DNA of 64,000 bases from Holophagales bacterium (GTDB lineage: Bacteria > Acidobacteriota > Thermoanaerobaculia > UBA5066): NCBI GenBank assembly GCA_016716705.1, contig JADJVF010000017.1, forward strand, positions 53,808-117,807. Reading direction: 5' to 3'. The notes under the pieces were generated by a model. The model saw only the letters and a list, made by a program, of their open reading frames with translations, searched no databases and was not told the DNA's origin. Position numbers and translations under genes: made by a program. Shown one piece after another: positions 23,095 to 23,825 of this stretch. Within the stretch, counting starts at the first letter, position 1; every line of letters begins with the position of its first letter.

Positions 23095-23740
23095 TACGCG
23101 CGGGGGGGCGATTCTAGCCGCACGCGCCGCGGCGGGCGGCTCGCTGGGGGGGGCGGGGGGCCGGCGGCGCGCCCCGGGGGGGCGCCGCGGGCGGGGGCCC
23201 CCGGCGGGGGGGGGGGCCCCGGGGGGGGCGCGGGCGGGGGGGGCGGCGGCGGCCGCGGCCGCGGGGGGGGGGGGGGGGGGGGCCCGCGGGGGGGCGCGCC
23301 GGGGGGGGGCGGCGGGGGGGGGGCCGGGGGGGCCGGGCGGGGGCCCGGCGGGGGGGCCGCGGGGGGGGGGGGGGGGGGGGGGGGGGGGGGGGGCCGCGGC
23401 GGCGGGGGGGCGGGGGCGCGGGGGGGGGGGGGGGGCGGGGCGGGGGCGGCGGGGGGCCGGGGGGGCGCGGGGGGGGGGCCGGGGCGGCGGGGGGGGGGGG
23501 GGGGCGGGCGGGGCCGCGGGGGCGGCGGCGGGCGGGGGCGGGGGCGGGGGGGGGCGGGGGGCGGCGGGCCGGGGGGCGCCGGGGGGGGGGGCCGGCGGGG
23601 GGGGGCCGGGGGCCGGGGGCGGGGGCGCGGCGGGGGGGGGGGGGGGGGGGGGGGGGGGCGGGGGGGGGGCCCGGGGGGGGGGGGGCGCGGGGGGGGGGGG
23701 GGGGGGGGGGGGGGGGGGGGGGGGGGCGGCGATGAAGGCC
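23095..23740. repeat. About 640-bp tract composed exclusively of G and C (long poly-G runs on the plus strand); probable sequencing or assembly artefact
   Basis: This is read directly from the sequence. There is no A or T between about 23130 and 23730. Homopolymer G runs reach 40 nt and the tract has no codon structure. Confidence 0.9.
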
Positions 23741-23797
23741 GTCAAGGGCGCCCTCGGCCCGCTCGGCATCCTGAACCCGGGGAAGATCTTCCCCTGA
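23732..23797 (+). pseudogene. C-terminal remnant (21 codons) of an FAD-linked oxidase (GlcD/D-lactate dehydrogenase-like) gene whose body is replaced by the G/C tract
   Basis: The translation MKAVKGALGPLGILNPGKIFP* matches the conserved C-terminal end (…DP.NILNPGKI…) of FAD-binding oxidases such as GlcD. Confidence 0.5.
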
Positions 23798-23825
23798 AGA
23801 GAGCTCGGCTAGACTCGTCGTTCCA

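Follow-up and report, generated by a model that had tools for sequence, protein, structure and literature searches.

Known phase-variable (contingency) homopolymer tracts of bacteria are about 8–20 nt long and occupy loci conserved among strains, in promoters or at the 5′ ends of ORFs. Homopolymers of 20–38 G are extremely unstable in bacteria owing to slipped-strand mispairing. G-rich tracts of another kind arise during base calling. In two-colour Illumina chemistry, absence of light is called as G, red alone as C, green alone as T and both as A, and clusters that fade yield poly-G tails (fastp, PMC6129281), so that a string made of G and C only means no green signal and a weak or noisy red one. 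Such tails on NextSeq and NovaSeq reads are dominated by G where the signal is absent, with residual red signal giving C, and carry no biological information (PMC6129281). We analysed a tract of this composition in a window of 64,000 nt (the whole stretch of DNA under study), situated between an acyltransferase gene and gatB. The tract shares with phase-variable tracts and G-quadruplex (G4) motifs the presence of G runs between divergent genes, but it is 586 nt long with runs of up to 38 G, and none of the relatives surveyed carries a tract there. It also differs from two-colour read tails, which occur at 3′ ends and cannot exceed the length of a read, in being internal with genuine sequence on both sides. 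Judged from sequence comparison, we put the probability at about 0.88 that the tract is a sequencing and assembly artefact, in which a chain of poly-G junk reads came to join contigs at a breakpoint that varies among strains, rather than genomic sequence.

Base counting over the 64-kb window placed the strict A/T-free run at 23146–23731, comprising 586 nt with 469 G and 117 C (80% G). A sequence-only reading made earlier had described about 640 bp of pure G/C without a single A or T between about 23130 and 23730; a pure G/C tract is indeed present, but it is shorter by count and starts later, with T at 23141 and 23145 just to its left. The longest G homopolymers measure 38 (23689–23726), 33, 27 and 20 nt, in agreement with the estimate of about 40 nt given there. 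No other A/T-free run in the window exceeds 25 nt, the chance expectation for a 586-nt A/T-free run at 70.4% G+C is about 1e-85, and 18 homopolymers of at least 8 nt fall within the tract against 2 in the other 63 kb. No N was found anywhere in the 64 kb. The C content drops from about 30% at the left edge of the tract to 3% at its right edge, where the run of 38 G touches genuine right-flank sequence.

The tract shows no internal organization. Codon periodicity, already said to be missing, is essentially absent, as C residues are distributed 34/31/52 by phase and the lag-3 autocorrelation of 0.115 is weak and not interpretable as coding. No repeated words of at least 30 nt with at least three C were found in the tract. 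TRF returned a period of 269–282 nt with 80–83% match, and a two-copy repeat was rejected on the basis of run-length-preserving shuffles, which equalled the ungapped identity in 47% and the half-versus-half score in 14% of the trials. Formal G4 potential is present (85 G runs, mean length 5.5), trivially from the composition, and has no bearing on whether the DNA is real.

Both neighbouring genes are intact and colinear with their orthologues. The acyltransferase gene (22106–23068, minus strand) encodes a 320-aa protein of the lipid A biosynthesis lauroyl/myristoyl family (PF03279) with homologues of 94–96% identity, and tblastn aligned it to the relatives over its full length without a frameshift. 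Since all close homologues are 320 aa long, its true start is the ATG at 23068–23066 on the minus strand, and the GTG farther upstream, at 23089, is not used. On the other side, gatB (23826–25286, plus strand) encodes the 486-aa aspartyl/glutamyl-tRNA amidotransferase subunit B (PF02934 and PF02637), 97% identical to the orthologue in locus L081; its identity to the best species representatives is 77% and 74%, and by its GatB relatives the window falls within or close to the Thermoanaerobaculia (Acidobacteriota). One of these two representatives, L002, carries upstream of gatB a 465-aa GlcD-like ORF ending in LDPNGILNPGKLVPE, giving the first support for the GlcD identity of 21 codons located between the tract and gatB in the window.

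The genuine intergenic left flank (23069–23144) is common to the relatives in alignment A1; near the tract it has three changes private to the window, namely two A>G substitutions (23090, 23134) and an additional T at 23095. Within it, GATTCTAG at 23110–23117 (A1 columns 88–95) is invariant in 8/8 aligned relatives, down to 79–86% protein identity, while its surroundings diverge; it is likely a regulatory site serving the divergent promoters, a candidate put forward from conservation. A second motif, CTAGACTC, lies at 23809–23816 on the plus strand, 10 nt upstream of the gatB ATG, and is kept in the relatives. A motif search found four copies in the window (2448–2455 and 23809–23816 on the plus strand, 8869–8876 and 22070–22077 on the minus strand) against 0.88 expected, a count reached by 0/100 shuffles. 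At 22070 the motif overlaps the TTG listed as the start codon of the peptidase_C26/GATase ORF, and a copy is also found upstream of the oxidase start in L081. CTAGACTC may be a promoter or operator element of the lineage. Elsewhere in the window, between the genes resembling Lactamase_B and peptidase_C26, none of the alignments to L081, L082 and L083 continues through 21300–21327, marking a small hypervariable or indel region.

Immediately after the tract, the ORF at 23732–23797 encodes MKAVKGALGPLGILNPGKIFP followed by a stop codon, with gatB starting 28 nt farther on at 23826, exactly as previously described. The assignment of these 21 codons to the C-terminus of a GlcD-type FAD-linked oxidase was borne out, as 19/21 residues are identical to MKAVKEALDPLGILNPGKIFP, the last 21 residues of the 469-aa oxidase of L081, and the LDPxGILNPGK-type end of FAD-oxidase_C is present; the equivalent fragment in L084, called as a 48-aa protein, gave a weak PF02913 match. 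The rest of the gene is missing from the neighbourhood, since tblastn with the L081 protein found neither the oxidase body nor the PF01565 FAD_binding_4 domain in window positions 18001–28000 at E ≤ 1e-5. Intact oxidases of the relatives comprise 465–469 aa against the 21 codons left in the window, and the remnant (23726–23797, plus strand, with its stop codon) is a pseudogene fragment rather than a functional family member. It had been taken for a perfectly normal reading frame; it is instead a decaying scar, and its ATG corresponds to Met449 in the interior of the intact protein, a codon that has already become AGG in L082. The L082 remnant also carries an Asn>Ser change, and both changes are as expected of a neutrally decaying scar.

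Relatives were collected from a protein database, through acyltransferases 94–96% identical to that of the window, and by a metagenome scan with the acyltransferase, and the loci were sorted by tblastn. The predicted synteny of acyltransferase, glcD-like gene and gatB was found in L081 (JGI 3300034169), which has the acyltransferase, a divergent 469-aa oxidase with PF01565 and PF02913, and gatB; an intact oxidase adjoins the acyltransferase in L092 as well. L084 (JGI 3300014350) and L082/L083 (ENA ERZ25039601; Logan assembly of ERR12036780) are without the oxidase body and have about 170 nt between the acyltransferase and gatB, with the 21-codon remnant inside. The acyltransferase lies directly beside gatB in these three loci and in L087, L088, L089, L090, L091 and L093, plus L124 and L247. 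Two further strains carry scars of their own. In L085 (1–330, minus strand; compare L081:4971–6380), whose acyltransferase is 92% identical, a separate in-frame internal deletion of the oxidase joins ATGCGCGA straight to GCTCGGCTCGTCC, from codon 3 to about codon 340, via the 7-nt homology TGCGCGA; this deletion is an independent loss event. In L248 (150–290, minus strand), a 96%-identical strain, a third scar is made up of about 10 terminal codons (GILDPGKVFP) upstream of gatB, with the stop lost (TGA>AGG).

The public assemblies of these relatives have defects of their own. A 54-N scaffold gap (L084:1502–1555) lies within gatB of Ga0181814_1045086, so gatB was called there as two ORFs without a Pfam match. 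L247 (ENA ERZ25039527 contig_35328) is an assembly of error-prone long-read style in which the C-terminal 30% of the acyltransferase is out of frame (P0038), gatB is cut to 376 aa and a fusion links peptidase_C26 with Lactamase_B, and its database proteins are unreliable. P0038 was considered as a second case of junk beside the acyltransferase and was rejected, since it is a gene with a frameshift in this error-prone long-read assembly and no tract lies beside it. The gatB region of L124 (1–1551, Ga0124853_1340963) gave fragmented, overlapping tblastn matches in several frames with 36–91% identity, which suggests that this contig carries many frameshift errors.

The alleles can be compared base by base. 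To the left of the oxidase gene L081 reads ggcggctcgGTCGCATG, the intact allele's left boundary being GGCGGCTCGGTCGCATGAGG, and just before the remnant equivalent it reads ttcggctctcgCGGCGATGAAGG. Across the scar, L084 and L082/L083 read GGCGGCTCG joined to CGGCGATGAAGGCC, so that the remnant follows directly with zero filler; the L084 junction in full is gcaggcggctcg joined to cggcgATGAAGGCCGTCGAGGGC and continuing to TTCCCCTGA, and the direct junction of the deletion allele is GGCTCGCGGCGATG, also written GGCGGCTCGCGGCGATGAAGG. The breakpoints in L081 carry the microhomology GGCTCG / GGCTCTCG, and deletion between these short repeats removes 1376 nt and yields exactly the L084 junction. On this comparison the loss of the oxidase is a real, older microhomology-mediated deletion in a lineage that once had a GlcD-type gene between the acyltransferase and gatB. 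The likeness to microhomology deletion scars, which extends to the 21-codon remnant and to the junction GGCTCG|CGGCG, covers the scar only, as the G/C tract is absent from the other scar carriers. The gene would thus already have gone from the window's lineage, or at least from co-occurring strains, before the tract appeared.

In alignment A1 the window tracks the relatives up to GGCGGCTCGC (ending at 23144) and picks up again with GCGGCGATGAAGG at 23726, which makes it a deletion allele with 581 extra bases (23145–23725; one T, the rest G/C) placed exactly at the scar and absent from all relatives surveyed. The boundary is ambiguous by 2 nt (GC) in A1, and the strict A/T-free run reaches 23731 because the genuine right flank itself begins with G/C bases. 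On either side, the tract ends within 0–2 nt of the breakpoints of the deletion allele in L084 and L082/L083. This coincidence is the strongest clue to the origin of the tract: its position exactly on an older scar is expected of an assembly breakpoint at a strain-variable site and is not expected of an independent biological insertion.

The coincidence also bears on the proposal that G/C filler replaces the body of the gene, according to which the organism has an intact 1.4-kb oxidase and the assembler failed inside it. The 95%-identical strain L081 has the intact gene at the same position and is the nearest relative of the right flank (98.2% over 23728–24230, against 96.0–96.2% for the deletion strains), and the remnant of the window shares the states GTCAAG and AAGATC with L081 and not with L084/L082. 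Two other states are those of the deletion strains L084/L082/L083, one being GGGCGCC in the remnant and the other C at 23144. At the left boundary the alleles are told apart by that single C, which could itself be junk. A random failure within the gene has no reason to stop within 0–2 nt of the L084 and L082/L083 breakpoints, and the coincidence cannot be had unless the sample contained genomes with the deletion allele. The tract is moreover 581 nt long against 1376 nt for the gene body, with no similarity between them. In L084 and L082/L083, which have no oxidase body, the remnant is fused cleanly to the left flank, and the 581 nt of the window are thus an addition at the scar and not a replacement; we regard an intact gene hidden behind the filler as unlikely. 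The ratio of mismatches to L081 and to L084 changes across the junction with a marginal p = 0.054, weak evidence for a switch of nearest relative and for a chimeric join of flanks from two strains.

The absence of similarity was established by recoding the 1376-nt gene body of L081 into four G/C-only alphabets (A and T to G; A to G and T to C; A to C and T to G; A and T to C) followed by local alignment to the tract on both strands, in which the scores equalled those of run-shuffled controls. The tract is therefore not an image of the lost gene produced by simple channel failure, deamination or hypermutation, and a garbled copy of the gene was ruled out.

The immediate surroundings of the tract bear a related signature. 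Counting as window-private those sites at which the four reference loci L081–L084 all agree against the window, we found 84 differences in 5187 nt. Within 120 nt of the tract, 4/6 of them are A>G (23090, 23134, 23757 and 23846) and one is the inserted T at 23095, compared with 6/78 A>G farther away (Fisher p = 0.0014, the near set comprising only six). The change at 23757 converts the conserved Asp of LDPLGILNPGK to Gly in the remnant. The excess of A>G near both junctions is consistent with contamination of the consensus by G-biased reads. The earlier warning that the assembly is unreliable over 22.1–23.8 kb proved too broad, given the full-length acyltransferase, and only about 23.09–23.85 kb of the window is suspect.

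Should the tract be real DNA, it would be a strain-specific insertion of about 580 bp, A/T-free and 80% G, at the scar between the divergent genes, for instance a hypermutable G tract that has expanded or an island of G-quadruplexes. The good quality of the flanks, which are otherwise free of frameshifts, speaks for this, as does a length exceeding that of any artefact tract used for comparison below. Exact-protein look-ups with GatB, the acyltransferase (as 327 and as 320 aa) and QueF matched no record of the window's own strain, so that the tract is not directly contradicted by another assembly of it. Among the relatives, however, none of the 15 closest loci whose contig reaches the intergenic region (L081–L093, L247 and L248) has an A/T-free run of more than 30 nt, and the longest such run across all 44 loci of the tblastn classification is 36 nt. 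No G/C tract was found at the orthologous site in these 15 loci, and deletion strains of 94–96% identity, with an identical scar, cross the junction without a break. The L084 junction reveals that the scar formed without filler, and a later insertion would have had to strike the same bond. No periodicity or repeat unit points to expansion, G homopolymers of the lengths found here would be expected to slip, and the texture is identical to that of junk at unrelated contig ends. We accordingly hold a genuine insertion to be highly improbable.

That comparison came from a scan of IMG/VR, which includes older IMG datasets, for runs of 38 G. At least 120 viral contigs matched (L127–L246), and among these listed matches 104/120 runs lie within 150 nt of the end of the locus and 16/120 are internal. 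Among the same matches, the A/T-free stretches around the runs reach about 151–156 nt at most, with a median length of 57 nt, and many of them are A/T-free G with scattered C; in L165 (11319–11469), for example, 151 nt comprise 118 G and 33 C, a texture indistinguishable by eye from that of the window tract. The terminal tracts of L165, L142, L192 and L153 and the internal one of L212 share with it the lack of A and T, the long G runs, the scattered C and the short C runs. In L212 (3169–3270) poly-G is followed by (CGCA)n-like junk between stretches of ordinary sequence. The poly-G runs of IMG/VR, a database in wide use, are probably artefacts that went uncurated, and by its texture the window tract belongs to a kind of junk that is common in public assemblies. 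A literature search on poly-G artefacts in metagenome assemblies gave generic matches only.

The IMG/VR tracts also show where the artefact reading is strained. At 586 nt against a maximum of about 151–156 nt among the listed tracts, the window tract does not fit a simple read-tail model, in which the length is at most one read; it exceeds even the longest of the 120 listed tracts about fourfold, and it is internal and bridges two real flanks, so that a single read tail is insufficient and several junk reads must have been chained or a gap filled. Random noise should seldom be chained by a strict de Bruijn assembler working at large k, which counts against junk reads as the source. The G-rich strand, finally, runs 5′ to 3′ into the right flank, unlike a simple read tail, yet among the matches listed 56 of the 104 terminal tracts likewise read into their contig and 48 read outward. 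In favour of an artefact stand the outlying composition, the scar and the exact match of the tract boundaries to it, the lack of structure, the failure of any surveyed relative to show the tract, and the like texture at unrelated contig ends, and on these grounds we agree with the sequence-only reading that a technical artefact is the best explanation.

Junk-read chaining could have proceeded as follows. The point at which the intact and deletion alleles diverge would be a natural branch point of the assembly graph. If both alleles were present in the sample, the left branch of the graph would fall at GGCGGCTCG and the right one at CGGCGATG, and contigs would end at these points. Contig extension, local assembly or gap closure at such a breakpoint could recruit low-complexity junk reads, by their mates or by short-word walks. 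These reads would be G-dominated calls from clusters without signal on a presumed two-colour platform, with sporadic C from residual single-channel signal. Because the opposite flank starts with G/C only (GCGGCG), the chain of junk might be closed there, leaving 581 nt to bridge two genuine flanks.

A different technical route would place the error after assembly, where an N gap of estimated size was filled or converted by a gap closer or polisher, or where the consensus of a long-read assembly failed over a heterozygous structural variant. The 581 nt fall between the allele lengths of 0 and 1376 nt, as might a gap estimate averaged over a mixed population, and related public assemblies do contain N gaps (L084) or are themselves error-prone long-read assemblies (L247). 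The window, however, has no N at all, and its indels relative to the relatives are few (0–2 gap openings per approximately 900 nt), unlike the frameshift-ridden long-read contig L247. The left-to-right gradient of purity and the G/C-only alphabet, furthermore, resemble the output of base calling and not a fixed filler. We consider processing after assembly a distinctly doubtful source.

Chained junk reads, as the preferred reading, have consequences beyond this contig. Gene callers emit Gly/Ala/Arg-rich and Pro-rich ORFs through the tract (22007–23797 and 22519–23880, and 22993–23769 and 23114–23938 on the minus strand), and the view that such Gly/Arg/Pro-rich proteins are spurious is upheld, as the ORFs run through artefact sequence; gene calling on the contig would thus pollute protein databases, and also any search for proteins that are intrinsically disordered or of low complexity. 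Poly-G junk would not be limited to contig ends but could bridge genuine flanks at a strain-variable site over several read lengths, and filters that trim contig ends would miss it because it is internal.

The biological importance of the tract is small and its practical importance real. Were it genuine DNA after all, it would be the longest G-only or G4-dense island known in a bacterial chromosome, set between the divergent promoters of the acyltransferase and gatB, and would imply a so far unknown template-independent or slippage-driven synthesis together with a means of replicating through it. For the family, the different scars of L084/L082, L085 and L248 show that the GlcD-type oxidase beside gatB was lost several times independently in the Thermoanaerobaculia-related clade via different small-homology deletions.
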